Assembly (NCBI GenBank): GCA_903902515.1
Contig: CAIUVD010000069.1
Span: 11,475-75,474, forward strand
Reading direction: 5' to 3'
Length of the DNA: 64,000 bases
Origin: an uncultured Planctomycetota bacterium
GTDB lineage: Bacteria; Planctomycetota; UBA11346
Part shown: positions 1,237 through 16,363 of the stretch, in pieces
Position numbering within the stretch: the first letter of the stretch is position 1
Layout of the letters: every line of letters begins with the position of its first letter
Translations under genes and position numbers: made by a program
The notes under the pieces: generated by a model
Databases searched by the model: none
Told to the model about the DNA's origin: nothing
What the model saw: only the letters and a program-made list of their open reading frames with translations

Positions 1237-2814
1237 ATGCTTCCGGTGTCGGAGCCCACCATGCGCCATGCCTGCCCACCACTCGCCACCCCCTGGTCCG
1301 CCTTCTTCGCCTGGCCTGGCGGGGCCAGTCTTCTCTACCTCGTCAGCGCCGCCTCCCTGTTGGGCGGCGCTGGCCTCGTCCTGGCGCCCGCCGTCGGTCT
1401 GGAGGACAGCGTCCACGAACGTCTGGCCATGGCCGGGACCGTGGCCCTCTACACCGGGGCCCTCCTGGGGGTGGCGACCCTGGTCTGCCACTGGCAGCGC
1501 GACCACGACGATGCTGTGGGGTTGAGCGTGCTGTTGGCCGTCTTCCTGGTGGCCTGCACCGCTCCCCTCAACGTCTTGGCCCTGGGCCGGCCGGTACTGG
1601 TGCCGCTCCTCGCGGGGGCCTGCGTGGTGGGAGCCTTGGGTGTGGCCCGCACCTGGACCCGGCGGGTGGGTGGCCCTCTGCCGTGGCACGTCAACTGTGG
1701 TGCCGGTCTGGTCCTGTTGGGCAGTGCCGCGGCCCCGGCCCTGCTGGCGGTGGCGGCCAGTGTTCATGGCGTGCCGGACCCGGGCCTGCTGCTGCCCTGG
1801 TGGCAGGGTGCCCTGGGGGTCGTGACCCTCGGTATCGTCGTCCTGGCCAGGGGCCTGGGCCGGCCTCTGGCCACCTCCCGGTGGCCGCGCCAGCCCACCA
1901 TCCTCCACGAGGACCTGCGCTGGATCCTGGGCCTGGTAGTCGCCATCGTGGGCACGGCCCAGGTGTGGGTGGCGAGTTACAGTGCCAGCCTGGGCCTGGG
2001 TTTCGTGGACCTGCTCCTGCCCGTGGTGCCCATGTTGGCGGCCCTGGACGGTTTGCTGGCCAACCGCTTCGCCGTCGCTCCCCTTGAGCGGGTCGTGTGT
2101 TGGGCCTGTCTGACGACGTTGCCCATCCTGTGCATCGGCCATGGTGCCCTGCCCTGGAGGGATGCGGGCCTCACCAGCCCGGCCCTGGCCTCAGCCCTGG
2201 GCGCCCTGCGCCTCGTGTGGCTGGCCTGGGAGGCTCGCCACACGGGTCTGGCGGTGATGGGGGTGCTGTGGGCTGCCCTGGCCACCGTGGGCTGGGAGGC
2301 GTCTGAGACTCACCGGGTTTTTCATCCGGTCGCGGCGGGCGGAGTACTGGTGCTGGGCCTGATGGGTGTGGCCTTGGCCCTACGTCAGGTGACCCTGGCC
2401 ATCCTGGCCGCGGCCATCGGCGTAGTGGGCCTCGGGCAGTACCTGGGGTGGTCGGGTGGCGGCGTGTTCATGGCCCTCGGCGGTCTGGTCCTGGCTACCC
2501 ACCTGGCGCTGGGACGGCGTCTTCCCACGCTCCTGTTGGTGGCCGGCAGCGGGGCCCTGGCCCTCGGCCTGCTGGGCTGGGCTAACGCACCGCACCTGAC
2601 GGGTCTGGAGGCCTCCCTGCTGGGGATGGTCGCCGGCGGAGCGGGAATGGTGCGTGATCGCCAGCGCTTGGCATCCTGGGCACCCTTGCTGGCACCGGTC
2701 GTCAAAGCCGGGGCGACCCTTGCCCTCCACCAGCCCGCCTGGGCCGCCGTGGCGGCGGCCTTCGTGCTCCTCGGGGTTGGTGCCCTGCTCAGTCGTCGCA
2801 CGGCTCAGCGGTAA
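1237..2814 (+). CDS. Polytopic integral membrane protein (~12-14 TM helices), function unknown
   Basis: ORF 1177..2814 is highly hydrophobic with regular Ala/Leu/Gly/Val helix-length segments and short charged loops. The tool start at 1177 is a GTG inside the operator palindrome. ATG at 1237 or 1261 is the more likely start. Confidence 0.6.
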   Translation: MLPVSEPTMRHACPPLATPWSAFFAWPGGASLLYLVSAASLLGGAGLVLAPAVGLEDSVHERLAMAGTVALYTGALLGVATLVCHWQRDHDDAVGLSVLLAVFLVACTAPLNVLALGRPVLVPLLAGACVVGALGVARTWTRRVGGPLPWHVNCGAGLVLLGSAAAPALLAVAASVHGVPDPGLLLPWWQGALGVVTLGIVVLARGLGRPLATSRWPRQPTILHEDLRWILGLVVAIVGTAQVWVASYSASLGLGFVDLLLPVVPMLAALDGLLANRFAVAPLERVVCWACLTTLPILCIGHGALPWRDAGLTSPALASALGALRLVWLAWEARHTGLAVMGVLWAALATVGWEASETHRVFHPVAAGGVLVLGLMGVALALRQVTLAILAAAIGVVGLGQYLGWSGGGVFMALGGLVLATHLALGRRLPTLLLVAGSGALALGLLGWANAPHLTGLEASLLGMVAGGAGMVRDRQRLASWAPLLAPVVKAGATLALHQPAWAAVAAAFVLLGVGALLSRRTAQR

Positions 2815-2864
2815 GGCCTTTCTGCTCTCATCTCCCTCTTTCATGCTGTCAGCCGAGTCACCCC

Positions 2865-3341
2865 ATGGATCAGCTTCCCTCCACACCCTGCCCTCTCACC
2901 CCCGTGGAACGCCGCAGTCCATGGTCCACTTGGTGGCAAGCACTCGTTCAAGCCCAGCATCCATCTGTGGGATGGCTCGGTCGACTCGCCCTCTTCGTGT
3001 GGGTCGCGTCCATACCGTCCTTGGCCATCCTCGCGAACCTGGTCGTCAAACAGTTCCATGAGATCGACGGTAACCATGTCGTGGCCCAGGTGCTGCACTA
3101 TGCCTGTTGTTCGGTTTTCTGGCCAACGGTCTTCTTCAGGCCCTACCGCCGTGGTCTGAGCAACGAGGCTTTCGTCGACACGCTCGTGCTTGTCCAAGTG
3201 GTGGTGGTGGTGGTGCTCGCGAGGTCCTACCTCATCAACACCCGCAACGTTCCCATTACCTTTCGGCACCTTTTGCCGACGGCCCTCGTTTTCGCGGCCA
3301 ATTCCGTCATGACCTGGACCCTGGGTATTCGCCACGCTTGA
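2865..3341 (+). CDS. Small hypothetical membrane protein
   Basis: ORF with three hydrophobic segments (LALFVWVASIPSLAILANLVV, VVVVVVLARSYLI, LLPTALVFAANSVMTW). The overlapping antisense ORF 2841..3335 is His/Arg-rich junk. No recognisable family. Confidence 0.35.
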   Translation: MDQLPSTPCPLTPVERRSPWSTWWQALVQAQHPSVGWLGRLALFVWVASIPSLAILANLVVKQFHEIDGNHVVAQVLHYACCSVFWPTVFFRPYRRGLSNEAFVDTLVLVQVVVVVVLARSYLINTRNVPITFRHLLPTALVFAANSVMTWTLGIRHA

Positions 3342-3383
3342 CCACCCGGAGGGGATTCCTGGGTGCTCTCGGGAGCCACGCGG

Positions 3384-4892
3384 TCAGCGAGTGGGCGTTG
3401 TGCGGAACGGTTCCATCAGGTGTCGGGGCGTCAGTCCCTGCCCGAGGATCCACCGGTCCCAGAAGCGATCCGCGACCTCTCCACCCAGGGTGGTCCGCAG
3501 GTGGGTTTGCCAATCTGCGGGGGTGGCCACATGCCAGCGTTGGGCCGTGGCCCAGGAGCGCAGGCAGGCGAGCCAGCGCTCGTCCCCCACCTCGCGCCGC
3601 AGGGCGGCGTAGGCCACCGCGCCACGACCGTACACCTGACCGACGTAGTCCTCCTCCGTGGGCTTCCAGGTGTCTGGGTGGAGGGCCGGGAAGGGACCCT
3701 GGGTGTGGCCATTCACCGCCATCATGACGATCTCCTGCTCCTGCATGCGTCGCAGGGCGTCGCTGCGCTGTTCCAGAAGCCACAGGGTCGTCCAATTGGT
3801 CAGGGATTCATCCAGCCAGGTGGCCCGCAGGGGATCGTTGCCGACGATCTGGTACCACCAGGCGTGGGCCGTCTCGTGGGCGGCGATCATCTCCACATAC
3901 CCCCGTTCGACCTCGGTGGCTACGCTGCAGGCGCCCGCGTCGATGAGGTACAAGCCCGTGGATTCAACACCGCCGGCGCCCTCGCCCAGGGGCGCTACCA
4001 CCACGTCCAATTCCCGGAAGGGGTAGGGGCCGAAGGCGGCGGCGCAGCGGGCCACGGCGGCCGCGGTGGCCTCCCGTAGCAATGAAGTCGCGTCGGCGGT
4101 GGCTGGCGTGGCCCACACCCGGACCTTGATGCCCGCGACCTCCTCCTCGTCGCGAACCCACGGCCCGCCCACCACTACGGTGAGGTTGCGCGTGAAGGGG
4201 CTGACGATGGTCAGGCGGCGGAAGGGCCCCGGTTCGTCCTCCACGGCGGTCACCGTGCCACCGACGGGAAAGGGCCCGCCATCGGGCACCCGCAGGCGGG
4301 CCGTGACGTGGGCCAGGACCGAGCGAGCTGGATCACAGAGGCTCGGGAGCGGATCCACCTGCCAGCGGCCATCGGCCCAGAGGGCCAGGTCCGGGTACCA
4401 GCCATGCAACACCGCGGGGCCATCGGGCTTCTGGCACGCGAGGCCGTGGTAGCCCTCATCCCGGGACAAGGTGTGCCGGAAGGTCGCCGTGCACTGGACG
4501 GAGGCCCCGGGTGCCAGGGGGCGGGCCAGGGACAGGCGCACCCCCAGGCCTTCGGCGATGACCTGGGGCGTGACCTGGCGGCCTTCTACCGAGGCGGCGA
4601 TAACCTCCATCGCCGCTCCATGGTAGGACGACTGATTGGCGTAGGTCGCCAACACCAGGTCCGTGAGGGTCGTGCCGGTGTCGTTGCGCCATACGAGGTC
4701 CATGTGCCCGACGACGGCGGTGCCGTCCCAGGTGGCGTCCACATTGATGCGCGCCGCCGTATTCCACGAATCCCGTTCCGCCGCCCCGGGGGCATGGAGG
4801 GCGGCGGCCCATGGTGGCGGTATCGGTGCGGGGCGCCCGGCGGCCAGGCTTGCTGCCAGCACAAGGACTCCGGTGGCGAGGATGGACTTCAC
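3384..4892 (-). CDS. Secreted M1-family zinc aminopeptidase
   Basis: N-terminal signal peptide MKSILATGVLVLAASLAAG. HExxH zinc motif HETAHAWWYQ followed by WLDESLT (the third zinc-ligand Glu), typical of peptidase M1. ATGA overlap with the upstream SpoU gene. Confidence 0.85.
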   Translation of the reverse strand: MKSILATGVLVLAASLAAGRPAPIPPPWAAALHAPGAAERDSWNTAARINVDATWDGTAVVGHMDLVWRNDTGTTLTDLVLATYANQSSYHGAAMEVIAASVEGRQVTPQVIAEGLGVRLSLARPLAPGASVQCTATFRHTLSRDEGYHGLACQKPDGPAVLHGWYPDLALWADGRWQVDPLPSLCDPARSVLAHVTARLRVPDGGPFPVGGTVTAVEDEPGPFRRLTIVSPFTRNLTVVVGGPWVRDEEEVAGIKVRVWATPATADATSLLREATAAAVARCAAAFGPYPFRELDVVVAPLGEGAGGVESTGLYLIDAGACSVATEVERGYVEMIAAHETAHAWWYQIVGNDPLRATWLDESLTNWTTLWLLEQRSDALRRMQEQEIVMMAVNGHTQGPFPALHPDTWKPTEEDYVGQVYGRGAVAYAALRREVGDERWLACLRSWATAQRWHVATPADWQTHLRTTLGGEVADRFWDRWILGQGLTPRHLMEPFRTTPTR

Positions 4893-5659
4893 CCCCGGTA
4901 TTCCTCGACCACCTCGCCATGGCGATCTTCGCCAAAGGTCTTGGCCACCACGTCCTCGCCCTTGTCGCGGCGGATCCAGCGGTCGTAGGTGGCGATCTGT
5001 TCCTCGGCCGACAGGTCGCCGGGCAGGTTGGCTTCCATCTCGCGCTGGCGCAGGGCATAGACCGAGGTCGCCACCGACACCGACAGATTCAGGCTCTGGG
5101 GGAAGCCGACCATCGGGATCAGGAAGGCGCCATCGGCTCCGGCCACGGCCTCGGGGGAGACGCCGTTGCCTTCGTTGCCGAACACCAGGGCCAGGGGCCG
5201 CTCATCTAGCAGGGGCTTCAACAGGCCTGGCCCGGGAACGGCCCCGGCGGCCAGGTCGCTGACCAGGATGCGGTAGCCGAGGGCCCGCAGTTCGGCATAG
5301 GCGTCGGCGATCGTCGGCTGGATGTGCAAGTCGAGGTACAGGTGGCTGCCCTGGCAGACCTTGGGGTTGAGGCGAAAAGCGTTCTTGGCGGTGGTGACCC
5401 ACACCCGATGGACGCCGAAGGCGTCGCAGGTGCGGACGATGGCGCTGGCGTTGTGGGGATCGAAGCAGTCCTCCACCACCACGGCCAAACGCCCGGTGCG
5501 CCGGGCCAGGACCTGGCGCCAGCGGGCCGCCCGGGCCGGGGTCAGGAGGGTGTCGCCGGGGTGGGGCGGCACGGGGCTTGGAATATCGTTGGGGAGGTCG
5601 GTACTGGCGGAGTGCATGGGAGGACGAAACGTGGTGTCGGATCCACCATGGTCCTCCAT
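4889..5659 (-). CDS. SpoU/TrmH-family RNA 2'-O-methyltransferase
   Basis: Motifs AIVRTCDAFGV and LVFGNEGNGVS with LIPMVGFPQSLNLSVSVA are diagnostic of SPOUT-class SpoU methylases. 4-nt overlap with the downstream M1 peptidase. Confidence 0.85.
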   Translation of the reverse strand: MEDHGGSDTTFRPPMHSASTDLPNDIPSPVPPHPGDTLLTPARAARWRQVLARRTGRLAVVVEDCFDPHNASAIVRTCDAFGVHRVWVTTAKNAFRLNPKVCQGSHLYLDLHIQPTIADAYAELRALGYRILVSDLAAGAVPGPGLLKPLLDERPLALVFGNEGNGVSPEAVAGADGAFLIPMVGFPQSLNLSVSVATSVYALRQREMEANLPGDLSAEEQIATYDRWIRRDKGEDVVAKTFGEDRHGEVVEEYRG

Positions 5660-5699
5660 CCCCCGATGCCAGGAGCAGCGTCTGGTGCGAAGAGCCGCG

Positions 5700-6494
5700 T
5701 CAAAAGGTCACTGCGCACCCCAGGCTGGTCCACACCGCATCTTCCGACGCCACCGACTCCTCCAGCGAACGCTGGCCGTAAACCCCCAGACGGGTCACGG
5801 TGGGCCCCAGGGCCAGGGGCAGGATGAGGCCGGCATCGACGTTGGACCAGCCAGGCTCCACGCCGAAGGCGCCGGTGTGGAAATCAGCCCAGGTCCGCAC
5901 GATCAGCGGTTGCAGGCCCAGGTCGCGCCAGGACTCCGGCAGGGCGATGGCGAGGGTGGCCGAGGGCTCTACCACCGACCCGGCGGCAAATACCCCCGGG
6001 GGATCCGGGGCCCAGTGGAACCAATCCACGGCCACGCCCCCGGTCACCGGACCGGCCGCCAGCAGGGACGGCAGGCCCGCCCCCAGGTTGAACTTCCACT
6101 GGCTGGTGCGGGCGAACGCGAGACCCTCGGCGGCCTGGGCGGGGGTCGCCGACGGGGTCTGGGGCTTCACCACATAGGTGCCATAGCCGTGAAGGTCGAT
6201 GGCCGTGGGGCCGTAGCCGATGATCCGGCCATAGATGGCCCGGAAGGCGATTTCGTCCTTCGACGCCTGATCGCGGTCGGCGGTCACGGACTGCCACACC
6301 AGGAAACGCAGACCGGGGAGGGCCGCATCGACGGTCACCCCGGTTTGCAGGCACGGCCCGTCGGTGACCAGGAACCCGTGGGAGACGAACCGGCTGACGG
6401 CGGTGACCTCGGCCCGGATGCCCAGGGGACGGTCTTCGGCCAGCAGGGCCGCCGCGAGCAGGAGGAGCGGCACGCTCCGGGATGCAGGGCACAT
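5700..6494 (-). CDS. Secreted hypothetical protein, possible beta-barrel (ends in Phe)
   Basis: Signal peptide MCPASRSVPLLLLAAALLA. Alternating hydrophobic/polar strands. C-terminal ...LGCAVTF. Confidence 0.5.
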   Translation of the reverse strand: MCPASRSVPLLLLAAALLAEDRPLGIRAEVTAVSRFVSHGFLVTDGPCLQTGVTVDAALPGLRFLVWQSVTADRDQASKDEIAFRAIYGRIIGYGPTAIDLHGYGTYVVKPQTPSATPAQAAEGLAFARTSQWKFNLGAGLPSLLAAGPVTGGVAVDWFHWAPDPPGVFAAGSVVEPSATLAIALPESWRDLGLQPLIVRTWADFHTGAFGVEPGWSNVDAGLILPLALGPTVTRLGVYGQRSLEESVASEDAVWTSLGCAVTF

Positions 6495-6498
6495 CGGA

Positions 6499-7329
6499 TC
6501 AGTCTTCCACAATCAGGAGATTGGTGACGGTGGCGGCGGCCCGGTGGTCTTCCCAGGACCACACCAGGCGGTTGTCGGCATCGAACTGGACGGCATGGGG
6601 GCCCTGGCCTTCGTGGCCGTGCCCACACCAATTGGCCACCACCACGTCGCCGTTGGCGAGGCGCTGGCAGCCAGAGAACCACAACAGCCGGGCCTGGGGA
6701 TGGGCCTCCTGGCCGCCGAAGCTGCGGACCACGGCCCCCTGGGCGTCCAGTTCGAGGACGCTGACGGCGGCGCCGGTCGAGGCCAGCAGATGGCCATTCG
6801 GCAGGCGCAGGCCGACGTACCCCTTCCCGGGCAGGGGAATGCGGGCCAGCACCTGGCCGTCCTCGCCCACCGACAGCAGCACCTTCGCATCTGACAGGCC
6901 GATGAGGAAACGGCCCGGGCCGTCTTCGCGAACCAGGCGGCCACCTTCCAGGCCCGCCACTGGAATCTCCTGCGGTGCCGTTGCCCCGGGCGCCAGCCGG
7001 AGCAACGCTCCGCTCCGCACGAAGAGGGTGGTGCCGTCGGTCAGGCGACGCGCGCTGCTGATGCCCGTACTGCCGGTCCAGGACCAGACAGGCTTGCCAT
7101 CGGCGAGGGCGTATTCCGTGGCCCCCGTGCCATGACTGACCAGCACCCGGTCGCCGAGGCGCTGGAGGTCGCGGCCTCCGGGGGGAAGGGCGATGCTCCA
7201 GCCCCGGTCGGGGCGGGCCTGGTCCACCAGCACTAGACGGTTGCCGCTGTTATCGAGAACGAGGAAACGGTGCTCAACGGCCAGGAGGGCCAGGGAGGTG
7301 CACCACAGGAGCAGGAGGGAACGGATCAT
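6499..7329 (-). CDS. Secreted beta-propeller repeat protein
   Basis: Signal peptide MIRSLLLLWCTSLALLA. Repeated blade-like segments (LVLVDQ..., LFVRSG..., VLLSVGEDGQVLARI, LLASTGAAVSVLELD, VVVANW, RLVWSWEDHRAAATV). 4-nt gap to the downstream gene, ATGA overlap with the upstream gene. Confidence 0.6.
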   Translation of the reverse strand: MIRSLLLLWCTSLALLAVEHRFLVLDNSGNRLVLVDQARPDRGWSIALPPGGRDLQRLGDRVLVSHGTGATEYALADGKPVWSWTGSTGISSARRLTDGTTLFVRSGALLRLAPGATAPQEIPVAGLEGGRLVREDGPGRFLIGLSDAKVLLSVGEDGQVLARIPLPGKGYVGLRLPNGHLLASTGAAVSVLELDAQGAVVRSFGGQEAHPQARLLWFSGCQRLANGDVVVANWCGHGHEGQGPHAVQFDADNRLVWSWEDHRAAATVTNLLIVED

Positions 7330-9503
7330 CGGGGTGCCTGGGGGACGTGGGGAATGGCGGGTTCGGTGTCATCGATCTGCAGCAGGTAGGCCACCAACTG
7401 GTCCCGTTCATCGGCGGTGAGCGTGCTGGTGACGCCGTGCCGGTCCTCGGGATTGCGGGAGGTCAGAACCTCATGGAGGGTCGCGGCGGACCCGTCGTGG
7501 AGGTACGGGGCGGTGTCCCACAGGCCGCGGAGGGTCGGGGTGTCCAGGCCGTCCAGGGGCTGCCCCCCCAGGCGCGTGCCGGAGGCGGCGGTGATGGTCC
7601 CCACCGCATGACGTTGGCCGAGGGCGCTGTCGGTGAAATCCGGGCCGCCGTGGCACGAGGCGCAGTCGAGGCGCTGGAAGAGGGCTCGGCCGGCCACGGC
7701 CGCCGGGGTCAGGGTTCCCTCGGCCGTGCGGGAGGGGCTGCGGCCCACGCGGTGCAGGCTGGCCAAGTAGGCGCTCAGGGCATCCAGGTCCTGACTGATG
7801 CCGGCCTTGGGTGTGCCCAGCGGCCGGTCATGGCCCTCACGGTGGAAATCGGCATCCGTCATCAGGCCGGTGCCGCCAAACGCCTGGCGGATGTCGTGCT
7901 CGAAGTCCTGGACCTCGTCGAAGTTGGCCGTCCAGTGCAGAGGCCCGTGGCCGGTGCCGCGACGACCCACCAGCGTGATGGTGTTGCGCAGGCCCTCGCC
8001 CCGGTCGCTAAAGTCCCAGGTCAGGCCGTCATGACGTCCGTCCTGATGGCAGGAGGCGCAACTGAGGTAGCCATCGAAACTGAGGGCCGGGTCCTCGGCG
8101 AGGTAGAACAAGCGTTTGCCGCGCAGGACCGCTGGCGGGAGGATTTCCGGCCCGCCGGTGCGGAGCGTGGCCAGGGTCAGGGCCTCGTTGGTGGTGCCCG
8201 CCAAGATGCCCCGCACATCGAGGACCGTCACGGTGCGCGACAGGAAACCTTGGACCCACAACTGCCCACGGTCGTCCAGCACCAGCCCCTGGGGTGCCGC
8301 CCCGACCCCCCGCAGGAGTCCCTGGCGGAGGTTCCCTTCCAGGTCCACCACCTCGACCAGATCATTGCCTTGGCAGGCCACGAAGGCGAGGTCGCCGACC
8401 GGACTGAAGGCCACGGCGCTGGCCATGGCCCGGTTGTCGAGGTCGAGACGGGAGGCGAGGTCCTCCTGAAAGGTGCCCAGGTCGAGCCGGGCCAGGATGG
8501 TGCGGACGGTGTTTTCGGGTGTGAGCGGTTGGCCGTCGCGACGCAGGCCCCGGAGGAGATTCGCCTTGGTGGCAGGGATGAGCGCCAGCCGACCATCAGG
8601 ACTGAGGGCCGGTGCGCCCAGGGCGTTGGGCAGGCCGCGACCGGAGGAGGTGGTGTCCTCCCCCGGATCCGGATCAAGGAGGGCCTCGCCCCGCACCGCC
8701 GCCGTGCGGGGATCCACCTCCACCCCCCGTCCGCCGCCGGCCCCGCTGAAAAAACACGTCACCAGGACGCGACGACCATCGGCGCTCACGGCCACGCCCC
8801 GGGGCTCCCGGCCGACCGCGCCCTCGGCGGCAATGCGGCGGAGCTGGGGATCGACCACCGCCAGCCGCCCGGTGCCCGCCAGGGTCACATACAGCCGCCC
8901 GTCGCCGAAGGCCAGACCGCAGGGCCGCGCCCCGTAGGCGAAAGCCACCGTGCCCAGACGCGCTCCGTCCCGCGCCTGATGCAGGGTCAGGGTGTCATCG
9001 TCCTCGTTGGCGACCCACACTTGGCCGTCCGGGGTCGCCACCACGCTGCGGGGATGGCGGCCCGTGGCGACGACCTGGCGCACCGTGCGGGTGGCTCCAT
9101 CGAGACAGGTCAGGGTATCCTGATCGGGATTCACGACCCACACCGCGTCCTGGGCAGGGTCGAGGGCGATGGGCGAGGACCACGAGGCTCGGCCGGGCAC
9201 GCGGGGATGGTGGATGACCTGCACCACCGTCTTGGACGCGGTCTTGCCACCGTGACGCGCCCGCACGAGCACCCCGTACCGGCCGACGGCGTCAAAGCGA
9301 TGCTCCACGGTGGTGGCCGGGCCGAAGGGCAGGACCGTGCCATCGGCGAAATCCCAAGCGATCTCCATCCCCGGGGGACCCTGGACCGTGAAGCGCGCCA
9401 CCTCCGCTACCGGCACCGGGGCCACGGGGGCCAGGGCGAGGTCGAGGGCCGGAAGGCACGGCGCCAGGACCAGCAACCACCAGCGAACCCGGCGGTGCGT
9501 CAT
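7326..9503 (-). CDS. Secreted multidomain protein: PKD-like domain + YVTN-type beta-propeller + di-heme cytochrome c peroxidase-like domain
   Basis: Signal peptide. N-terminal PKD-like fold (FTVQGPPGMEIAWDFADGTV...). Repeated propeller blades (VWVVNPDQDTLT, VWVANEDDDTLT, RLYVTLAGTGRLAVVD). Two CxxCH haem motifs, CASCHQDG and CASCHGGPDF, in the C-terminal ~300 aa, as in CCP/MauG-family di-haem enzymes. Confidence 0.8.
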   Translation of the reverse strand: MTHRRVRWWLLVLAPCLPALDLALAPVAPVPVAEVARFTVQGPPGMEIAWDFADGTVLPFGPATTVEHRFDAVGRYGVLVRARHGGKTASKTVVQVIHHPRVPGRASWSSPIALDPAQDAVWVVNPDQDTLTCLDGATRTVRQVVATGRHPRSVVATPDGQVWVANEDDDTLTLHQARDGARLGTVAFAYGARPCGLAFGDGRLYVTLAGTGRLAVVDPQLRRIAAEGAVGREPRGVAVSADGRRVLVTCFFSGAGGGRGVEVDPRTAAVRGEALLDPDPGEDTTSSGRGLPNALGAPALSPDGRLALIPATKANLLRGLRRDGQPLTPENTVRTILARLDLGTFQEDLASRLDLDNRAMASAVAFSPVGDLAFVACQGNDLVEVVDLEGNLRQGLLRGVGAAPQGLVLDDRGQLWVQGFLSRTVTVLDVRGILAGTTNEALTLATLRTGGPEILPPAVLRGKRLFYLAEDPALSFDGYLSCASCHQDGRHDGLTWDFSDRGEGLRNTITLVGRRGTGHGPLHWTANFDEVQDFEHDIRQAFGGTGLMTDADFHREGHDRPLGTPKAGISQDLDALSAYLASLHRVGRSPSRTAEGTLTPAAVAGRALFQRLDCASCHGGPDFTDSALGQRHAVGTITAASGTRLGGQPLDGLDTPTLRGLWDTAPYLHDGSAATLHEVLTSRNPEDRHGVTSTLTADERDQLVAYLLQIDDTEPAIPHVPQAPR

Positions 9504-11026
9504 GGGGCGGTCGTAAAACGGCTGGTAAACGTCGTCGCCACGGCGTTGCCGCCGAGGTCGCGCAGACCGCCGGCTGGCACCACCAGTTCATAGGTGGTCC
9601 CCGCAGCCAGGGCTTCGACCGGCGACAGGTTGATGATGCCGGTCTGGTAACTCAGGGCTGCTTCCACCGGAGCACCACCCACGGGACGCAGGAAGACCGT
9701 CGCCGAGGTGAGGCTGCGGTTGTCGAGGGCATCCGTCACCGTCAGGCCGACCCGGCTGGTGCGGGCCTGCTGGGTCGCGCCCGGAGCCGGGATCACTCGG
9801 TTGATGGCCGGGGGCGTGCGGTCCGGATCGGTCCCAGCGGGCAGGAGGTAGCTCCCGTCCCCGTGGTCGCTCGAACTGACGATGAGGTTGGCCAGGGGGG
9901 TACAGAAGTCGTAATCTGCCTTGGGATTCGGCAGCGCAGCCGTCTTCCCGGGCTTCACCTGGGTCAGCACCGGGAAGCCGTCCGGGCGGGTCAGGTCGAC
10001 GAGGGCGAAGTTGGTCGACATGCCGACGTAGGCCCGCCCGTCCTGGATGGCGACATAGCCACCCTGGCCACCGGCGGGACCGCTGTTGCCCAGGTACACA
10101 ATCTGTTCCGGATGGGTCAGATCATAGACGTGCACGGCGTTGTAGGGGGCCAGCACGTCGCGGGTCATCGCGGGCTGGGGCTCCGGGGGCTTCTCGCCTT
10201 TCGCGAGGTTCAGGGGGTTCTTGGAGGCCATGACAAACCGAGTGCCGTTGAACATCCCGGCATAGGCCTTGCCGGTCTGGGGGATCCGGTCCAGGACCAT
10301 GGGCCGCAAGGGATCGGCGATGGAGAGGGTGACCAGGCCGCGATTGCCCTCGACGGCCATCGCCACCAGGAGATTGCCGACGGCAAATAAGGTGGCCGGC
10401 AGGATCCCCCCCAGCTCCGCCGGCGGGATGCGAGCCACCACCACCGGTTTAGCGGGATCCCGCAGATCGACGATGTGCAGGCCCGTATCCAAGCCGCCGA
10501 CGTAGAGGTAGGGGAACTGGAGGGACGTCCACCACGGCGTCTGGCCGTAGTCGCCGCCTTTCATCGGCGGCAGGGGCGTATCCGACAGCAGCGCCGGCGC
10601 CCGGGGATCGCTCCAATCCCACACCTGGATGCCGGCCATGCCCTGGAGGACCGCCAGGCTGCGGCCCTTCCAGGTGGTGAAGCCGATGGTGTGGGCCTCC
10701 CGCAGGTTCCGCGTGGCGGCGTCGTACTGGTGGTGCACCAGTACGGGCTTCCGGGGATCGCTGACATCGAAGAAGCTCAGGTGGCCATCGCCCTTGCCGC
10801 CGTCCTTGGAGCCGATCACCGCCAACCAGCCGTTGTGCATCGCCACCAGACTGTGACCCGAGGGAGCACCGTTGGTCTCGTTAATCTGGCTGATGACCGT
10901 CAGGACCTCGTGGGGCGTGTAGGTTAGGTTGCCGATGCCCGGGCCCTCAGCCGCGACGCCGAGGGTCGCGAGGGCCAGTAGCAGGGTGCCGGAGCGGACG
11001 GGGGTGGGCCGGGAAGGACAGGTCAC
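9500..11026 (-). CDS. Secreted LVIVD-repeat beta-propeller protein with C-terminal Ig-like domain
   Basis: Signal peptide SGTLLLALATLGVAAEG. Repeated segments LHIVDLRDPAKPVV, VHVYDLTHPEQ, ALVDLTRPDGFPV match LVIVD repeats. C-terminal Ig/SbsA-like segment. Start is probably a GTG at ~11026 (13 nt after the upstream stop); the tool start at 11239 is inside the upstream gene. Confidence 0.7.
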   Translation of the reverse strand: MTCPSRPTPVRSGTLLLALATLGVAAEGPGIGNLTYTPHEVLTVISQINETNGAPSGHSLVAMHNGWLAVIGSKDGGKGDGHLSFFDVSDPRKPVLVHHQYDAATRNLREAHTIGFTTWKGRSLAVLQGMAGIQVWDWSDPRAPALLSDTPLPPMKGGDYGQTPWWTSLQFPYLYVGGLDTGLHIVDLRDPAKPVVVARIPPAELGGILPATLFAVGNLLVAMAVEGNRGLVTLSIADPLRPMVLDRIPQTGKAYAGMFNGTRFVMASKNPLNLAKGEKPPEPQPAMTRDVLAPYNAVHVYDLTHPEQIVYLGNSGPAGGQGGYVAIQDGRAYVGMSTNFALVDLTRPDGFPVLTQVKPGKTAALPNPKADYDFCTPLANLIVSSSDHGDGSYLLPAGTDPDRTPPAINRVIPAPGATQQARTSRVGLTVTDALDNRSLTSATVFLRPVGGAPVEAALSYQTGIINLSPVEALAAGTTYELVVPAGGLRDLGGNAVATTFTSRFTTAP

Positions 11027-11039
11027 AGGAAACTCGCGC

Positions 11040-12131
11040 TCACGGGGTTTTGGGGAGTTGGGCGATCCACGCGGCAACGGCATCCACCGCCGGCTGATCG
11101 ACCAGGGCGCGGCCGATTTGGGGCATGCGTTCCTCGGGAACGGTGGAGCGCATGCGGTAATGCACCACGGAGCGAGCGACATCGCCGGGGACGATCGGTG
11201 CGGCACCATCGATCCCCATATCGTTGCGCACCAGGCCACCGATCAGGCCAGTGGCCTCCAGGGGCGTCGTGAAGCGCAGATCCAAGTCGGAGCCGACGCC
11301 CTCCGGGCGATGGCACGACGCGCAGTTGGCATCCAGGTAGGACCGCACCCGACGGGTGAGGTCGGCCTGGGGATCGTCGATGGCGGCCATGGTCGGGGCA
11401 CTCGCCAGGTCGGCGTCCTCCACCTTCCGATTGAAGAGCCCCAGGTGGTTCCAGGTCCGCAGTTGATGGGCGGTGGTGCCATCGGGGTAGGTGAAGGTCC
11501 CGTTGAGCTGAGCCGTCTTAGGTCCCAGGACGTAAGCGGCCGCCGGCGTATGGCAGGTCAGGCAGTTCTCCCGCGAGGGATAGGACCAGGTCTGCGTCCC
11601 GGCGGCGCCACCGGCATCCCGCAGGGCCAGGACCTCTTCAGCGCCATCGGCTGCCACCAAGTCCGCGTCCTGGCCATCGGGACGCCAACGGTAGGTCACG
11701 CCATAGGTGCCGGGCCCGGCGGCATCCAGCACCAAGACTCGGGTCTCTAGCCGCTGCACCCGGTGGCTGGCGGCATCGACCTCGCGCTCGAAGTGCTTGA
11801 TGAAGAGCGTGCCCTGGGGCCACTGGTACTCGCCGGTAGGGCTGAAGCCGATGGTCGTCCCCGTGGGGAGGGCCACCCACCGACGTTTGTTCGCCCCGTC
11901 GGACCACAGGGGCGAAATCATGTCGTAGGGCACCAGGCCCGGGGCCGGGGTTAGGGTCGCCACGTCGGAAAACAGCCCGGTCTGGGAGAGGCGTTCCGGC
12001 AACGGGCCGGTCACGACCGGCGGCATGGCGCAACCGGCGAAGGGCACGCGCCCGGTCATCCCGAACGGTCCCGAGGCCGCCACCAGGGGCACCGTCAGCA
12101 ACAGGACGGGCAGCCATCGGCGCAGGCGCAT
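11040..12131 (-). CDS. PVC-type haem-binding CxxCH domain protein (cytochrome c)
   Basis: Signal peptide MRLRRWLPVLLLTVPLVAASG. CLTCH and CASCH motifs. Resembles the C-terminal haem-binding module normally fused to the GSDH domain in PVC 'haem-binding CxxCH' proteins. Start ATG overlaps the upstream TAA (TAATG). Confidence 0.75.
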   Translation of the reverse strand: MRLRRWLPVLLLTVPLVAASGPFGMTGRVPFAGCAMPPVVTGPLPERLSQTGLFSDVATLTPAPGLVPYDMISPLWSDGANKRRWVALPTGTTIGFSPTGEYQWPQGTLFIKHFEREVDAASHRVQRLETRVLVLDAAGPGTYGVTYRWRPDGQDADLVAADGAEEVLALRDAGGAAGTQTWSYPSRENCLTCHTPAAAYVLGPKTAQLNGTFTYPDGTTAHQLRTWNHLGLFNRKVEDADLASAPTMAAIDDPQADLTRRVRSYLDANCASCHRPEGVGSDLDLRFTTPLEATGLIGGLVRNDMGIDGAAPIVPGDVARSVVHYRMRSTVPEERMPQIGRALVDQPAVDAVAAWIAQLPKTP

Positions 12132-13315
12132 TAGCGCAGCCCTCCCGGGCCGGTGTAGCGGATCCGCCACAACTCGCCGGCGTTCACGGTCATGATTTTC
12201 TCGGCCGGTCCGCCCAGGGGGCCGTTGCGGGCCAGGTACCAGACGGTGCCGTCCGGGGCCACTTCCAGATCCGTGGGGGCGGCGATGCCGGCGGCGAAGG
12301 GGGTCGGCTGCTCGGGCTTGGCCGGGTCGAGGCTCTTGATCCACCCCTTGTAATCGGACCACAGGTAGCGGCCGCGGAAGGACGCCGGGAAGGCCCCCGG
12401 CCCCGGTTTGGCGGGCTCATAGAAATCACCGCCGGTGATGCACACCTTGTCCGTGCGGTAGGCCAGTTCGGCATCCCGGTAGGTTCCCAGGCCGGTCATG
12501 GTCCGGCCCTGGGACGGTCCATCGAAGCCCAGGGTGCCGCCGGGCCAACCGTAGTTGACCACGATGGGTGGAGCGGCGGTGTCGTAGCGGTTGATCTCCT
12601 CGTAGATCTGGCCGGCCTCGATGATGTAGAGCAGACCCGTCGAAGGTTGTACCGCCATGGTCCAGGCGTTGCGGAAGCCCAGACCGACGACTTGGGGCAG
12701 CAGGCTGGGTAGCGTGGGTTGGTCCTTCGGCACCGAGCCGTCGGGTCGAAGCCGCAATAGCTTGCCTTGCAACGTGGTGGGAGCCTGGGCTTGCGGACCG
12801 CGGGTGTTGTCCCCCGTCGAGACATAGAGATTCCCATCCTGTCCGAAGCGAATGCCGCCACCGATGTGGAAGGGCGCCCGCTGGCCTAACTCCGGCAAGG
12901 TGATGATCACCTCCTCTGAAGCCGGATCCGCCACCGAGCCGCGCAGGGTGAAGCGACTGACGCGGTTGTGGGGCTTCGGCTCCTTGGCGGTGTAATAGAG
13001 GTAGAGCCAGCCGTTGCGGGCAAACTGGGGGTCCAGGATCAGGGCCAGTAGCCCCCGTTCGCCCCAAGGATCCACTCGCGCCACGAGGTCCAACACCGGC
13101 GTCGTCTGGAGGGCCCCATCCTTGACCAGGCGCACCAGCCCGGTTTTTTCCAGCACGAACAGCCGCCCATCGGGGGCGAAGGTCATGGTGGTCGGATTGA
13201 GGCCGGTGGCGATGCGCTCCTCCTGGAACCCGTCGGGCAGTTGCGCCGCCGCCAGGGCCACCGGGAGCAGGAGGAGAAGGGAACGGAGACAGGCCGTGAA
13301 GGAGCGGAAAGGCAT
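12131..13315 (-). CDS. Soluble glucose/sorbosone dehydrogenase (GSDH)-family PQQ-type beta-propeller oxidoreductase
   Basis: Signal peptide. Motifs FAPDGRLFVLEKTGLVRLV, GERGLLALILDPQFARNGWLYLYYT, FHIGGGIRFGQDGNLYVSTGD, APDGTVWYL are typical of the GSDH family. Confidence 0.8.
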   Translation of the reverse strand: MPFRSFTACLRSLLLLLPVALAAAQLPDGFQEERIATGLNPTTMTFAPDGRLFVLEKTGLVRLVKDGALQTTPVLDLVARVDPWGERGLLALILDPQFARNGWLYLYYTAKEPKPHNRVSRFTLRGSVADPASEEVIITLPELGQRAPFHIGGGIRFGQDGNLYVSTGDNTRGPQAQAPTTLQGKLLRLRPDGSVPKDQPTLPSLLPQVVGLGFRNAWTMAVQPSTGLLYIIEAGQIYEEINRYDTAAPPIVVNYGWPGGTLGFDGPSQGRTMTGLGTYRDAELAYRTDKVCITGGDFYEPAKPGPGAFPASFRGRYLWSDYKGWIKSLDPAKPEQPTPFAAGIAAPTDLEVAPDGTVWYLARNGPLGGPAEKIMTVNAGELWRIRYTGPGGLR

Positions 13316-13500
13316 GTCATTCCGTCACCGGGGAGCCGGTCATCGTCACGGCGGGCTCTGGGACCGTTCCACGCGCGTGTCACACAAGCGGCCGCCCCGC
13401 GTTTTCGAGGACCGAATTTCCAGGCCGTGGTCAACGGCCTCGACCATGGCCAGTACCAATCCTTCCCTGCCACCGAGAGCAGACGAGGTTCACTGCTCAT

Positions 13501-14026
13501 GCAGGATGACAGGCATCGACCCGAGGAGACCGTCCGCATCACCGCCGTGCTAGCCGAGCAGACGGCGGACTTGCGGCGGTTTCTTGGTTTTCTGCTGCCC
13601 ACCGCCGATGCCGATGATGTCCTCCAGGACCTGACCGTGGCCGTGCTGGAGGATCCTGCCCCGGTGCTGACCGCCCTCCAACCGGGGGCCTACCTGCGGG
13701 GCATGGCCCGCAACCTCGCCCGGCAGCACCGTCGCCGCTTCCGTCGCCACGCCCTTATCGAGGACCTAGCCTGCGCCACCTGGACCCCCCTGGAGACCGA
13801 CGACGACGACCGCGAACGCACGGCCCTGGCCCGCTGCACCAGTACCATGCGTCCGGAAGTCCGGGAGATCATTGCCCTGCGCTATGGCGAAGGGCTCAGC
13901 GCCGAAGCCATCGCACCACGACTGGCCATGAGCAGCAGCGGAGTGCGGATGGCGCTGAAACGCGGCCGAGATGCTCTCCTACGCTGTGTCCAGCAACGAC
14001 TGAAAGACCTGCACCATGGCGAATGA
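13501..14026 (+). CDS. ECF-subfamily RNA polymerase sigma-70 factor
   Basis: Region-2-like LRRFLGFLLPTADADDVLQDLTVAVLE and region-4 HTH REIIALRYGEGLSAEAIAPRLAMSSSGVRMALKRGRDAL. The ATG at 13501 (MQDDRHRPE) is preferred over the tool start at 13241. Stop overlaps the next gene's start (ATGA). Confidence 0.85.
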
Positions 14027-15404
14027 TCCCTGCGCCAATCTGCGTCAACAGGTGTGGTCCGCCCTCGACGGCACCCTCAACGATGAACAGGCGGTGGCCC
14101 TTGCCCGCCATGTGGAGAGCTGCCCGGCCTGCCGGGAGCACTTCGCTGGGGCTGTTCGTCTGGAAGCCCGCCTGCGTCAGGATCCGCCACGGATGGCCAT
14201 CCGTTGGCGATGGTGGGCCTGGGTGGCGGCGGCGGCGAGTCTGCTGCTGGCCCTTGGCACCCTGGCCCTGTGGCCTGCGACCCCCCGGCCGGCCGCCGAC
14301 CAATGGGCGGTCCTAGTGGCTGGGCAGGCCCGGACAGCTGGCGGCGACCTGGGACCCGCCGATGGGCCACGCTTCCACCACAGCCTCCAGACCCTCACGG
14401 AGGTCCGTCTGGCCCTCCCCGATGGCACCCGCTGCATCCTCGCCCCCGGCAGCAGCCTGGCCGTCGATCCGGAACCGCCCCTGGGCCGGGCCCTGCGCCT
14501 GGAAGCCGGCCGCCTGACGGTGCAGGCCACCCGTCAGGATCCCACGGCACCCCGCATCTTCCGGACCCCGGCCGCCACGGTCACCGTGGTCGGGACCCGC
14601 TTCACCCTGGCCCATGCCCCCGCAACGGGCAGTTCCCTGCAGGTCGCAGAAGGCGCGGTCCGTCTGGCCGCCGTCGGTGCGCCGCCGGTCGTGGTCGAAG
14701 ACCGGGAACCGCGCACCATCCCCTGGCCCGCCCCCCAGTCCCTGGCGGCCTTCGCCGCCCCGACTCCGGAGCGCCTGGAGCGGGATACCCAGGGCCGGAT
14801 CACCGCCTGGACCAGTACAGATCCGGTGGTCCACGCCAGGATCAGCCGTGGCCGTGGGTATCCGCGACCGGTCCATGCCCTGGGCCGACCGGCCTTGCAG
14901 TTCTCGGGGCCGGCTGACCACCTCCAGGCCAACCTCCCGAGCCATGACCTTCGTCAGGGCCTGACGCTGCAGGTCGAGGCCTTGCCCGATCTGACCATCA
15001 CCAAGCCCATGACCCTGGTCTCCTACCGCATGCGGGACGGCGCCAGTCTGGACCTCGTGCTTACCCGCCAGCCGGCGGCACATCTGTTGGCTCTGATCCC
15101 GGACCAGGAACCCCTCGTCGTGCCCCTCGGCGAGCAGCCGCCGTCTCCCCTCCGGATCGTCTGCACCTGGGATGCCCATGGGCTGCTGACGCTGCGGACC
15201 CAGGCGGGCTTGGCCCAGGTGCGGACCACCATGGCGCCCACTGGCATGGGTACCGCCCAGATGGTCATCGGCGACCATGGCGGCAAGTCCCTGACCAAAG
15301 GCCAGACCGGATGGACCGGCGCCATTTTCAGCGTGTCGTTGACCGTCGGGACCATCCCCCAGCCCGTGCTGGAAACCTGGTTGGACACCGACACTGCCCC
15401 CTGA
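14016..15404 (+). CDS. Transmembrane anti-sigma factor (zinc-finger ZAS + FecR-like domain + ~250-aa C-terminal sensor domain)
   Basis: HVESCPACREHF zinc-binding anti-sigma motif. One TM helix (WWAWVAAAASLLLALGTLALW). FecR-like segment RLEAGRLTVQA...VVGTRFTL. Long periplasmic C-terminal extension. Co-transcribed with the ECF sigma gene. Confidence 0.8.
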   Translation: MANDPCANLRQQVWSALDGTLNDEQAVALARHVESCPACREHFAGAVRLEARLRQDPPRMAIRWRWWAWVAAAASLLLALGTLALWPATPRPAADQWAVLVAGQARTAGGDLGPADGPRFHHSLQTLTEVRLALPDGTRCILAPGSSLAVDPEPPLGRALRLEAGRLTVQATRQDPTAPRIFRTPAATVTVVGTRFTLAHAPATGSSLQVAEGAVRLAAVGAPPVVVEDREPRTIPWPAPQSLAAFAAPTPERLERDTQGRITAWTSTDPVVHARISRGRGYPRPVHALGRPALQFSGPADHLQANLPSHDLRQGLTLQVEALPDLTITKPMTLVSYRMRDGASLDLVLTRQPAAHLLALIPDQEPLVVPLGEQPPSPLRIVCTWDAHGLLTLRTQAGLAQVRTTMAPTGMGTAQMVIGDHGGKSLTKGQTGWTGAIFSVSLTVGTIPQPVLETWLDTDTAP

Positions 15405-15420
15405 CCCCTCGAAATGTCGC

Positions 15421-16038
15421 CTACGGCAAGACCCGGAACCCCGCCCAGCGGTAGGGGTCCGCCGCCGTGATCACCCCAGCGACCCGTTCGCGGGTGGCGA
15501 CGGTGAATGCCAGACAGGTGGCATGGTCGGCGGTGGCATCGCGCCAGCGGGCTAACCAGTCGAGGGCCGCCTGTTGGTCATCGGCACTCGGGATGACCAC
15601 CGTGAGGTGCTTGGCCAAGGCTAGACGACGGCCCCGTTCGGCGGCAAAGGCTGGATCGGTCCGGCGGGCGAGGTCCGTCAGGGCCGTAGCGACCTCGGTC
15701 GGGGTGGTGATCAGGGCTGGGCGGCGCAGGACCACGGCGGCCCACGCCCGCTGCAGACGGGGATGATCCGGATGCCCACGCCAATGGCGGGCCACCAGGG
15801 CATCGGCGGCCACGAACAGGGTTCCCGACGGCAACGGCGGCGGCTCGGGCACGAGGGTAGCCGGGCCACCATGGATGGCGGTGTCTGCCAGCCAGGGATC
15901 ATCCGTTGGATCTTCGCCCGCCACCACGGCCGCCAACTGGTCGCGGATCAATTCTGCCAGGGATTTTCCCTGGGCCTTGGCATGCCGGGCGGCGCGTTCG
16001 CGGAGGTCCGGAGGCAGGAGGATGGTGGTGCGGTCCAT
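15421..16038 (-). CDS. Single-chain RHH (VapB-like) antitoxin fused to a PIN (VapC-like) nuclease domain
   Basis: N-terminus MDRTTILLPPDLRERAARHAKAQGKSLAELIRDQL is a ribbon-helix-helix CopG/VapB signature. C-terminus ...DATADHATCLAFTVATRERVAGVITAADPYRWAGF resembles the PIN C-terminal conserved block. The ATG shares one base with the upstream Rieske gene's stop (TGATG). Confidence 0.55.
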   Translation of the reverse strand: MDRTTILLPPDLRERAARHAKAQGKSLAELIRDQLAAVVAGEDPTDDPWLADTAIHGGPATLVPEPPPLPSGTLFVAADALVARHWRGHPDHPRLQRAWAAVVLRRPALITTPTEVATALTDLARRTDPAFAAERGRRLALAKHLTVVIPSADDQQAALDWLARWRDATADHATCLAFTVATRERVAGVITAADPYRWAGFRVLP

Positions 16039-16307: not shown

Positions 16308-16323
16308 GTCCTGGACCAACCCT

Positions 16324-16363
16324 TTCGGCTGGTGGACTTCCGGACTTCCGGACTTCCGGACTT
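16324..16363. repeat. (GGACTTCC)x4 octamer tandem repeat ending GGACCCTG
   Basis: GGACTTCCGGACTTCCGGACTTCCGGACTTCCGGACCCTG lies between the nadA stop (16376) and the Rieske start (16307). Its terminal GGACCCTGCCTCA matches the GGACCCTGACTCA terminus of the 28856-28955 array. Confidence 0.85.

Follow-up and report, generated by a model that had tools for sequence, protein, structure and literature searches.

Gene organization of the region

We analysed a 64,000 nucleotide (nt) window of DNA from an uncultured Planctomycetota bacterium (lineage UBA11346; contig CAIUVD010000069.1), in which positions 3384 to 15404 hold a string of genes for mostly secreted redox and beta-propeller proteins, headed by a divergently transcribed pair of regulatory genes. 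At the centre of this work are two neighbouring genes of the string, which encode an LVIVD-repeat protein and a 725 amino acid (aa) protein with a C-terminal di-haem domain. The window proteins were characterized using Pfam and NCBIfam profiles, PDB sequence searches, AlphaFold2 models, Foldseek comparisons and a comparison of gene neighbourhoods. The open reading frames (ORFs) listed below are all present at the given coordinates, and public gene calls on identical metagenome contigs concur.

12131..13315, minus strand: pyrroloquinoline quinone (PQQ)-type soluble glucose/sorbosone (aldose sugar) dehydrogenase (GSDH), 394 aa, signal peptide; gene 1 of module A
11040..12131, minus strand: probable SO2930/TIGR03806-family di-haem c-type cytochrome, 363 aa, signal peptide; gene 2 of module A
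9500..11026, minus strand: LVIVD-repeat beta-propeller with Big_5 Ig-like domain, 508 aa, GTG start, signal peptide; head of module B
7326..9503, minus strand: PKD domain, 7-bladed YVTN propeller and C-terminal di-haem domain resembling cytochrome c peroxidase (CCP) and hydrazine synthase gamma, 725 aa, signal peptide; body of module B
6499..7329, minus strand: small secreted beta-propeller, 276 aa; occasional accessory of module B
5700..6494, minus strand: secreted protein of an orphan family, 264 aa, C-terminal Phe
4889..5659, minus strand: SpoU/TrmH-type RNA 2'-O-methyltransferase, cytoplasmic, no signal peptide; housekeeping passenger
3384..4892, minus strand: M1-family zinc aminopeptidase, secreted, 502 aa, GTG start; passenger
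13499..14026, plus strand: extracytoplasmic function (ECF)-type sigma-70 factor, 175 aa (199 aa from an alternative upstream start), divergent from the GSDH gene
14016..15404, plus strand: anti-sigma factor with zf-HC2 domain, one transmembrane segment (about residues 62-86), periplasmic FecR domain and a C-terminal region of about 240 aa
13316..13498: divergent intergenic region of 183 nt, the presumed promoter location

The minus strand carries eight co-directional genes from 13315 down to 3384, and every junction between them is either an overlap or a gap of at most 40 nt, just as an earlier reading made from the letters of the DNA (the sequence-only reading) had described. The GSDH and cytochrome genes overlap by TAATG; the TGA stop of the cytochrome gene is followed by 13 nt and the GTG start of the LVIVD gene at 11026; the LVIVD/di-haem and di-haem/276-aa junctions are both ATGA; and the TGA of the 276-aa gene is separated by 4 nt from the ATG of the 264-aa gene at 6494. 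A gap of 40 nt (5660-5699) lies between the 264-aa and TrmH genes. These six junctions are as previously listed, while the seventh, TrmH/M1, had to be corrected from ATGA to GTGA, because the M1 gene begins with GTG. The earlier term "ten-gene operon" does not hold for the co-directional chain and reaches its count only if the two regulators are included. The regulatory pair itself is present as described, at a distance of 183 nt rather than 185 nt, and its two genes overlap by 11 nt. Hydrophobic N-termini typical of signal peptides were seen by inspection on all proteins except TrmH, again as had been noted. The genes past both ends of the region are convergent and the string is therefore bounded.

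The window has a G+C content of about 70%. Neither an Rfam nor a tRNA scan over its full length gave a match. A scan of positions 2500-16500 detected no sigma-70-like promoters and no terminator-like sites in the intergenic gaps; its three overlapping terminator-like matches represent one site inside the di-haem gene and are fewer than in shuffled sequences. Opposite the di-haem gene, an antisense ORF of 748 aa (7347-9593, plus strand) exceeds the true 725-aa gene in length and is a high-GC artefact.

The LVIVD and di-haem proteins are fused in other organisms

With the 725-aa protein as query, 306 homologues were obtained, of which many are about 1200 aa long and join Big_5 and LVIVD segments with PKD, CCP_MauG and RoxA-like domains, showing that the LVIVD and di-haem genes of the window are fused elsewhere. 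For a systematic comparison we took 80 loci from species-representative genomes, out of more than 545, that were anchored on di-haem homologues from Verrucomicrobiota, Burkholderiales, Myxococcota, Bacteroidota, Gammaproteobacteria and Acidobacteriota. The loci were searched with all ten window proteins, and final neighbour counts were obtained from stop-to-stop ORFs and profile hidden Markov models.

An LVIVD/Big_5 head was found at 31 of the 80 loci; a blastp census placed it in the same ORF as the di-haem body in 20 cases and in a separate adjacent ORF in 9. At 36 further loci the PKD–YVTN–di-haem body was preceded, within the same ORF, by a galactose-oxidase-like head (Glyoxal_oxid_N/Kelch with a galactose oxidase-like E-set domain). 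The two heads never occurred together (0/80), and 13 loci, several of them on short contigs, had neither. Most of the 80 host ORFs measure 1300-3300 aa. The LVIVD/Big_5 and 725-aa proteins are thus two halves of a polypeptide that is single elsewhere, and the head is exchangeable with a copper radical oxidase-like head on the same di-haem body. Large secreted proteins of this family are widespread and uncharacterised, and module B is their split version. Either type of head consists of a propeller and an Ig-like domain.

For the oxidase-type head of Paracidovorax wautersii, the alignment with galactose oxidase (E = 1.4e-39) matches the stretches 'FC', 'YHS' and 'VTH', which we take to be those of Cys228, Tyr495/His496 and His581 of the copper radical site. 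Giant secreted fusions with such a head, 1300-3300 aa long, are encoded at L062:7754-12928 (P. wautersii DSM 27981), L046:8255-13426, L033:7361-13735 and 33 other loci. Relatives of this type often carry AbfB, RicinB, F5/8-C, BACON, PA14 or Big_7 modules according to Pfam, and MYXO-CTERM surface-sorting tags are present in some homologues. In the searchable literature we found no description of the galactose-oxidase-head plus PKD–YVTN–di-haem architecture and no characterisation of bacterial copper radical oxidase–cytochrome fusions.

Peroxidases are known to activate galactose oxidase, and the Streptomyces oxidase GlxA partners the dye-decolourizing (DyP) peroxidase DtpA. The fusion of a di-haem body to a galactose-oxidase-like head in the oxidase-type relatives suggests, by analogy, a similar oxidase–peroxidase pairing, although here the peroxidase partner would be a c-type di-haem protein instead of a DyP- or plant-type enzyme. 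The window protein differs further from these couples in having an LVIVD head that lacks the copper radical residues. Nine oxidase-type loci, and none of the LVIVD type, contain an adjacent gene for a protein of about 200-250 aa with the motif 'FVFTGCSTVCP'. Read from this motif, it is a candidate Sco1/SenC-like copper chaperone. The nine genes are:

L054:3489-4220
L062:7104-7757
L067:4627-5385
L072:7534-8178
L075:7339-8004
L076:13352-13972
L079:13012-13623
L080:7146-7772
L082:6555-7298

For the LVIVD head of the window, the earlier description as an LVIVD propeller with an Ig domain proved accurate. Big_5 was detected with 63 bits (E = 4e-17) and the LVIVD profile PF08309 marginally with 20.6 bits (cut-off 20.2). 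Six repeats of the form 'φxφφDxxDP' follow each other about 50 aa apart (residues 83, 133, 183, ~231, 298 and 340), and AlphaFold2 predicted an all-beta propeller plus an Ig-like domain (pLDDT 87.7, pTM 0.88). Foldseek returned generic propellers only, the best being Sb-PTE (5HRM, TM 0.51) with galactose oxidase at rank 26. The protein has no haem motif, and a sequence search found no relative of it in the PDB.

The di-haem body resembles hydrazine synthase β-γ

The AlphaFold2 model of the 725-aa protein (pLDDT 94.9, pTM 0.93) comprises a PKD domain, a seven-bladed propeller and a helical di-haem domain, with CxxCH motifs at residues 482 (C482) and 614 (C614). A PKD, YVTN propeller and di-haem peroxidase-like protein had been recognized here before, and these domains were all recovered. 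PF03150 (CCP_MauG) matched with 30.8 bits, above its cut-off of 25.6. In PDB sequence searches the haem domain matched best to hydrazine synthase γ (5C2V_C, E = 5e-19), followed by CcpA (3O5C, 1.4e-11) and 1IQC (about 1e-11), and more weakly to MbnH-like 6E1C (2.7e-8), MauG (about 4e-3) and RoxA (0.14). Each of 20 homologues compared keeps both CxxCH motifs, W524 and a PYLHDG motif, and in all 105 the second CxxCH motif is unchanged.

With bacterial cytochrome c peroxidases such as Shewanella CcpA (3O5C) and the Nitrosomonas europaea enzyme (1IQC), the protein has in common two CxxCH motifs in the same order, the PY[FL]HDG motif, the inter-haem Trp, the CCP_MauG match above the gathering score and a periplasmic, peroxide-type fold. 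It differs from them by its 725-aa propeller context, by a score below the family threshold (NF040606, 31.2 bits vs a cut-off of 150) and in both haem environments. No conserved distal His follows the first CxxCH among the 20 homologues. Furthermore, the electron-transfer haem lacks its Met: the peroxidase 'NTM'/'ETM' (Met, 14 residues after the PYFHDG His in 3O5C and 1IQC) faces 'TSRN' in the query, which holds no Met. Since the peroxidase Met is absent and the His of a conserved 'DRHG' motif (His689) aligns with 'DMHG' of hydrazine synthase γ, haem II is probably bis-His ligated via His689, as judged from these alignments.

The overall architecture is that of a hydrazine synthase β-γ fusion. 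In hydrazine synthase (Kuenenia stuttgartiensis, 5C2V; β and γ fused in Scalindua) a seven-bladed propeller is likewise followed by a CCP-fold di-haem domain. The propeller of the window protein matched the β subunit both by sequence (E = 8.5e-6) and in Foldseek (TMt 0.79), and its haem domain has in common with γ a 'D-x-H-G-x-T-S' His after PY[FL]HDG. A hydrazine-synthase-γ-like N-oxide chemistry, in which the di-haem domain would reduce NO to hydroxylamine or handle a related N-oxide in the periplasm, is suggested by the best PDB match of the haem domain being γ, by the match of the propeller to β, and by the domain order. However, the family models reach only about 5-10% of their cut-offs (NF052341 for the γ subunit, 71.5 vs 625; NF052342 for the β-γ fusion, 61.1 vs 1250). 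In the phmmer alignment to 5C2V_C, with positions mapped by index count, γCys165, the residue of a third covalent haem link in hydrazine synthase, faces Phe542 and the γHis144 region faces an invariant 'HW' (W524). No α subunit is encoded at 3384-15404, where the only other CxxCH protein is the SO2930 cytochrome. The window protein also has an added N-terminal PKD domain and an LVIVD/Ig partner. In addition, family members occur in many genera of presumably aerobic heterotrophs, such as Polaromonas, Variovorax and Aquimarina. An identity as hydrazine synthase was rejected on the scores, the two replaced residues and the missing α subunit, and we regard N-oxide chemistry as the most improbable of the explanations considered here. 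This is in agreement with a recent study which reported that fused β-γ hydrazine synthase homologues are widespread and uncharacterised, lack key hydrazine synthase residues and carry a Trp at the γHis144 position, and which was likewise negative for such homologues (PMC12758564, 2025).

The sequence-only reading had also considered that the protein might modify another protein as MauG does. In such a scheme, a MauG/MbnH-like maturase would use peroxide at the di-haem domain to install a cofactor or cross-link in the head, which would then be the real enzyme. The protein belongs to the same superfamily, is obligately paired or fused with a specific partner encoded next to it, gives weak matches to TIGR03791 (MauG, E = 3.9e-11), TIGR04039 (MbnH, E = 5.7e-14) and the MauG-like model of the His-Xaa-Ser system, and has an invariant Trp524 between the haem motifs, an inter-haem Trp being used by MauG (PMC12758564). 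The scores are, however, far below threshold (42.7 vs 443.85 bits for TIGR03791 and 51.9 vs 362.85 bits for TIGR04039), and the similarity to MauG in the PDB is very weak when set against the match to hydrazine synthase γ, which makes the MauG-like reading weaker than its alternatives. There are no mau or mbn genes nearby: no MbnP-like gene was found among the neighbours by Pfam or NCBIfam, and none of the neighbours, the partner included, is related to methylamine dehydrogenase. Haem II is predicted to have a His ligand, where MauG has a Tyr. The often permanent, covalent 1:1 fusion to the partner would be unusual for a maturase. Cofactors of the galactose oxidase type form autocatalytically, and the LVIVD head contains just two Cys, of which one lies in the signal peptide. 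Taken together, a maturase function appears quite unlikely.

The proteins could also be mainly structural or adhesive components of the cell surface, with haems serving extracellular electron transfer only. S-layer and other surface proteins typically contain domains of the PKD, YVTN, LVIVD and Ig-like kinds. The best sequence match of the propeller was an archaeal YVTN+PKD S-layer protein (1L0Q, E = 9e-24), the top Foldseek match was the leptospiral surface antigen Lp49, and the surface-sorting tags of the homologues fit as well. Against this stand the strict conservation of a catalytic-type CCP-fold di-haem module with invariant motifs around haem I and the alternative fusion to an oxidase head in which the presumed catalytic stretches of galactose oxidase are matched, which argues for enzymology. 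We hold a mainly structural role to be very unlikely. Module B is a new architectural variant within the CCP/MauG/hydrazine-synthase-γ superfamily. Literature searches found no characterisation of LVIVD proteins with a cytochrome c peroxidase, such that for the LVIVD/di-haem core the lack of a described pathway holds as previously noted.

GSDH and the SO2930 cytochrome form an independent module

The first protein of the string was confirmed as a PQQ-type GSDH (PF07995, 150.8 bits), with a C-terminal third that departs from the Pfam model. Its PDB relatives are 2ISM (E = 5e-27), 3A9G, 2G8S and 1C9U, and its stretch 'PFHIGGGIRFG' aligns with 'LHSGGRIAFG' of 2ISM such that the His of the 'HxGG' motif is matched. 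Like E. coli Asd/YliI (2G8S), the Thermus enzyme (2ISM) and Acinetobacter soluble glucose dehydrogenase (1C9U), it is thus a secreted PF07995 protein with the HxGG His. Judged by these alignments it is a normal relative of the PQQ aldose-sugar dehydrogenases and predicted to bind PQQ. It differs from them in being paired, as in about 30% of the loci sampled below, with an SO2930/TIGR03806 di-haem cytochrome.

The second protein had been taken for a split haem-binding protein of the Planctomycetes–Verrucomicrobia–Chlamydiae (PVC) type. Its two CxxCH motifs (residues 190 and 270) are indeed present, while the family assignment had to be changed to, most probably, SO2930/TIGR03806 (E = 1.3e-76, covering profile positions 2-314 of 314, with 257.8 bits below the cut-off of 313.3). 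The split PVC-type candidate (TIGR02603/TIGR02604) was rejected: GSDH scored 26.8 bits vs a TIGR02604 cut-off of 122.2, and for a PVC-type haem domain in the cytochrome PSCyt1 gave 22.9 bits with no significant stretch. At least 1312 homologues of the cytochrome exist, most of them about 445 aa long with an extra CHB_HEX_C (chitobiase-C-type) domain that is absent from the window protein; among those listed, the ones with 46-54% identity carry the JGI label TIGR03806. A sequence search found no relative of the cytochrome in the PDB, and a literature search found no characterisation of SO2930/TIGR03806 cytochromes.

In a second sample of 85 loci anchored on the cytochrome, 65 had sufficient upstream DNA, and 20 of these have a GSDH gene immediately upstream, in the same orientation. 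The closest such loci are L085 (52% identity), which has no module B genes, and L090 (48%). Neither an LVIVD gene nor a di-haem domain was found near the cytochrome at any of the 85 loci, where matches to the 725-aa protein were weak and confined to the YVTN propeller. GSDH and the SO2930 cytochrome are thus an independent, recurrent two-gene module, in which the cytochrome is the presumed electron acceptor of GSDH.

In about 30 of the loci (L087-L169), a convergent gene for a YVTN/choice-of-anchor-I propeller of about 365 aa was observed downstream of the cytochrome. Since the cytochrome has two alternative propeller partners, the upstream GSDH or this downstream convergent protein, a role as general redox partner of secreted propeller enzymes is suggested. 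In one of two sister-species loci (L173:2230-3292) the cytochrome gene is broken, with residues 140-179 missing and the frame changed, which is either an assembly error or a strain-level pseudogene; the gene is intact in the other, L174.

The divergent sigma/anti-sigma pair

Both regulators were correctly recognized before as an ECF sigma factor and a membrane-spanning FecR-type anti-sigma factor. The sigma factor contains Sigma70_r4_2 and r2 domains and scores 47.3 bits with TIGR02937 (cut-off 42.9) and 89.6 bits with TIGR02989. The anti-sigma factor matches PF13490 (zf-HC2, E = 3e-7) and PF04773 (FecR, E = 9e-10), and its C-terminal 242 aa have no Pfam match.

As in FecI/FecR signalling, an ECF sigma factor is combined with a membrane anti-sigma factor carrying a periplasmic FecR domain. 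The pair differs by its zf-HC2 N-terminus, by the extra C-terminal region and by the lack of a nearby transducer: no gene for a Plug or TonB_dep_Rec domain lies within 10 kb on either side (L001). Moreover, among the fetched loci the adjacency of the pair to the string is conserved only within the sister species and genus. The divergent region is 85% identical to that of the sister species. One candidate ECF promoter, GGAAC-N15-CGT at 13348-13370 on the minus strand, 35 nt upstream of the GSDH start, was rejected: the pattern occurs 10 times in the window vs 7.0 expected, and the -35 element of the candidate is altered in the sister species. With no TonB-dependent transducer nearby, a lineage-limited adjacency and the motif at chance frequency, the proposed cell-surface-signalling-like control is not supported. 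In this genus the pair may regulate the string.

Just beyond the anti-sigma gene lies a minus-strand ORF (15421-16188), in which residues 51-81 weakly resemble a ribbon-helix-helix (CopG-like) domain (E = 5.8e-5, below the cut-off) and are followed by a region of about 170 aa. Public gene calls give it 205 aa with no Pfam match. It may be an antitoxin-like regulator.

Accessory and passenger genes

The 276-aa protein has no Pfam match, and its relatives show PQQ_2 or arylsulfotransferase-like matches. Members of its family stand beside LVIVD/di-haem genes at three of the 80 loci (L018, L051 and L012). On a metagenome contig (L170), an LVIVD/Big_5 gene (544 aa), a di-haem gene (729 aa) and a homologue of the 276-aa protein (56% identity) follow each other, flanked by unrelated genes. 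Relatives without module B were observed at L171:10001-10867 and L172:10001-10936 amid polysaccharide-degradation genes, with pectate lyase, GH43, 3-keto-disaccharide hydrolase and GFO/IDH/MocA oxidoreductase as neighbours. There are hints of a carbohydrate-related role of this propeller.

For the 264-aa protein no Pfam or NCBIfam match was obtained. Its family is rare, with only 39 representative clusters among 1.84 billion proteins, and occurs, among the fetched loci, only in the sister species; it is a lineage-specific add-on. From the C-terminal Phe and the signal peptide only, an outer-membrane barrel is possible.

The assignments of the last two genes as a SpoU methylase and an M1 aminopeptidase hold. 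The TrmH protein matches PF00588 (93.8 bits) and NF008295 (E = 3.9e-34); the peptidase matches PF01433 (E = 3.3e-12) and contains HETAH-X18-E, a HExxH-X18-E motif. TrmH was not found beside module A or B elsewhere in the fetched loci, and in the sister species (L173) the M1 gene lies about 4.9 kb from TrmH, behind four genes on the opposite strand. Both are best seen as passengers.

One pathway or several modules

The tight packing of the string raises the possibility that all eight genes form one operon that is switched on by the divergent ECF sigma factor and encodes one oxidative pathway of the periplasm, which would have a sugar or an aromatic compound as its substrate or would modify a protein. 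Several observations fit this explanation. All junctions are close and free of terminator-like sites, seven of the eight proteins carry signal peptides, and the gene order from sigma to TrmH is kept in the sister species (L173 and L174; 85-90% aa identity). Furthermore, at L006 (Polaromonas sp. YR568) and L005 (a Rhizobacter metagenome-assembled genome) the gene for an LVIVD–di-haem fusion is followed by a GSDH gene, and L147 combines a GSDH–cytochrome pair with a downstream relative of the 276-aa propeller.

The comparison of the neighbourhoods speaks against a single pathway. The SO2930 cytochrome, the 264-aa protein, TrmH, the M1 peptidase, sigma and anti-sigma were each adjacent to di-haem homologues at 0 of the 80 loci, and GSDH at only 2 (L005 and L006, both among the 31 of the LVIVD type). 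A clustering of all neighbouring ORFs revealed no other widely shared neighbour. Across the genomes, LVIVD/Big_5 was the only regular partner of the di-haem gene, and the 276-aa family and GSDH were rare ones. Module B was absent around the cytochrome (0/85), and L170 holds just the three-gene core. The M1 gene has a different position in the sister species, TrmH, as an RNA methylase, belongs to the cytoplasm, and there is no ECF promoter signal beyond chance. We consider the one-operon pathway unlikely. From the notion of one secreted system, the genes, secretion signals and redox/propeller nature stand, while the string is not co-conserved as a unit.

Given the gene content, fusions, head exchange, synteny statistics and fold that were observed, it is probable, though far from certain, that the region is a lineage-specific co-directional string of separate modules and not one dedicated pathway. 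Some points weigh against this reading. At L006 the fusion protein (8549-12529) and the GSDH (12817-15441) have a common 145-aa C-terminal domain (49% identity, E = 6e-38), which probably binds or anchors both proteins and suggests their common targeting; this GSDH also carries an NPCBM glycan-binding domain. With the chance adjacency of a GSDH to a given gene roughly estimated at about 0.1% per locus, the adjacency of GSDH and module B (2/31 plus the window) is beyond chance, although the Burkholderiales cases may be one event. This recurrence with a common C-terminal domain speaks against full independence of modules A and B. The tight junctions and sister-species conservation also fit a co-transcription of all eight genes and a physiological link, and tblastn/blastp searches at 1e-3 to 1e-5 can miss very divergent neighbours, e.g. 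ECF sigma factors. With respect to module B, the proposed chemistry is conjectural. Sequence and Foldseek searches revealed neither a recognisable cofactor site nor a close solved structure for the LVIVD head, which may only bind and not catalyse. None of the window proteins has a carbohydrate-binding module, and those of the relatives belong mostly to the oxidase type. We consider it plausible that the secreted redox and propeller proteins are loosely associated in function, but not that they make up a fixed pathway.

A tentative model for the two modules

For the chemistry and electron flow we infer the following. In module A, the periplasmic GSDH would pass electrons from aldoses or other sugars to the cytochrome, which would hand them on to the respiratory chain or to a different acceptor in the periplasm. 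In module B, the LVIVD and 725-aa proteins would form an extracytoplasmic complex. Its head would bind a substrate outside the cytoplasm or, in relatives with a head of the oxidase type, oxidise it. This substrate may be a glycan, since relatives carry RicinB, AbfB, F5/8-C, BACON, PA14 and NPCBM modules. Haem I, without the conserved distal His of peroxidases, would react with peroxide or another small oxidant, and haem II, probably bis-His, would relay electrons from periplasmic cytochromes. In the present organism, the neighbouring SO2930 cytochrome could, together with GSDH, be the donor to haem II.

A bolder version of this model goes considerably further. LVIVD propellers would be extracytoplasmic catalytic heads that are functionally interchangeable with copper radical oxidases and would form, with the hydrazine synthase β-γ-like body, a new two-part oxidase–peroxidase or peroxygenase-like class of enzymes acting on glycans of the cell surface or the environment and fed, in this organism, by a PQQ dehydrogenase via the SO2930 cytochrome. 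We regard this version as doubtful.

If true, the model would give initial clues to the function of three large groups of proteins, namely LVIVD-repeat proteins, SO2930/TIGR03806 cytochromes and hydrazine synthase β-γ relatives outside the anammox bacteria. The either/or exchange of LVIVD and galactose-oxidase-like heads on one di-haem body is a strong comparative clue in this respect. For annotation, the region shows that a common pathway cannot be concluded from tightly packed genes when the genome is compact and of high GC: here a tRNA methylase and a peptidase share a string with secreted redox genes. The model would, if true, also bear on how hydrazine synthase evolved from ordinary periplasmic haem proteins.

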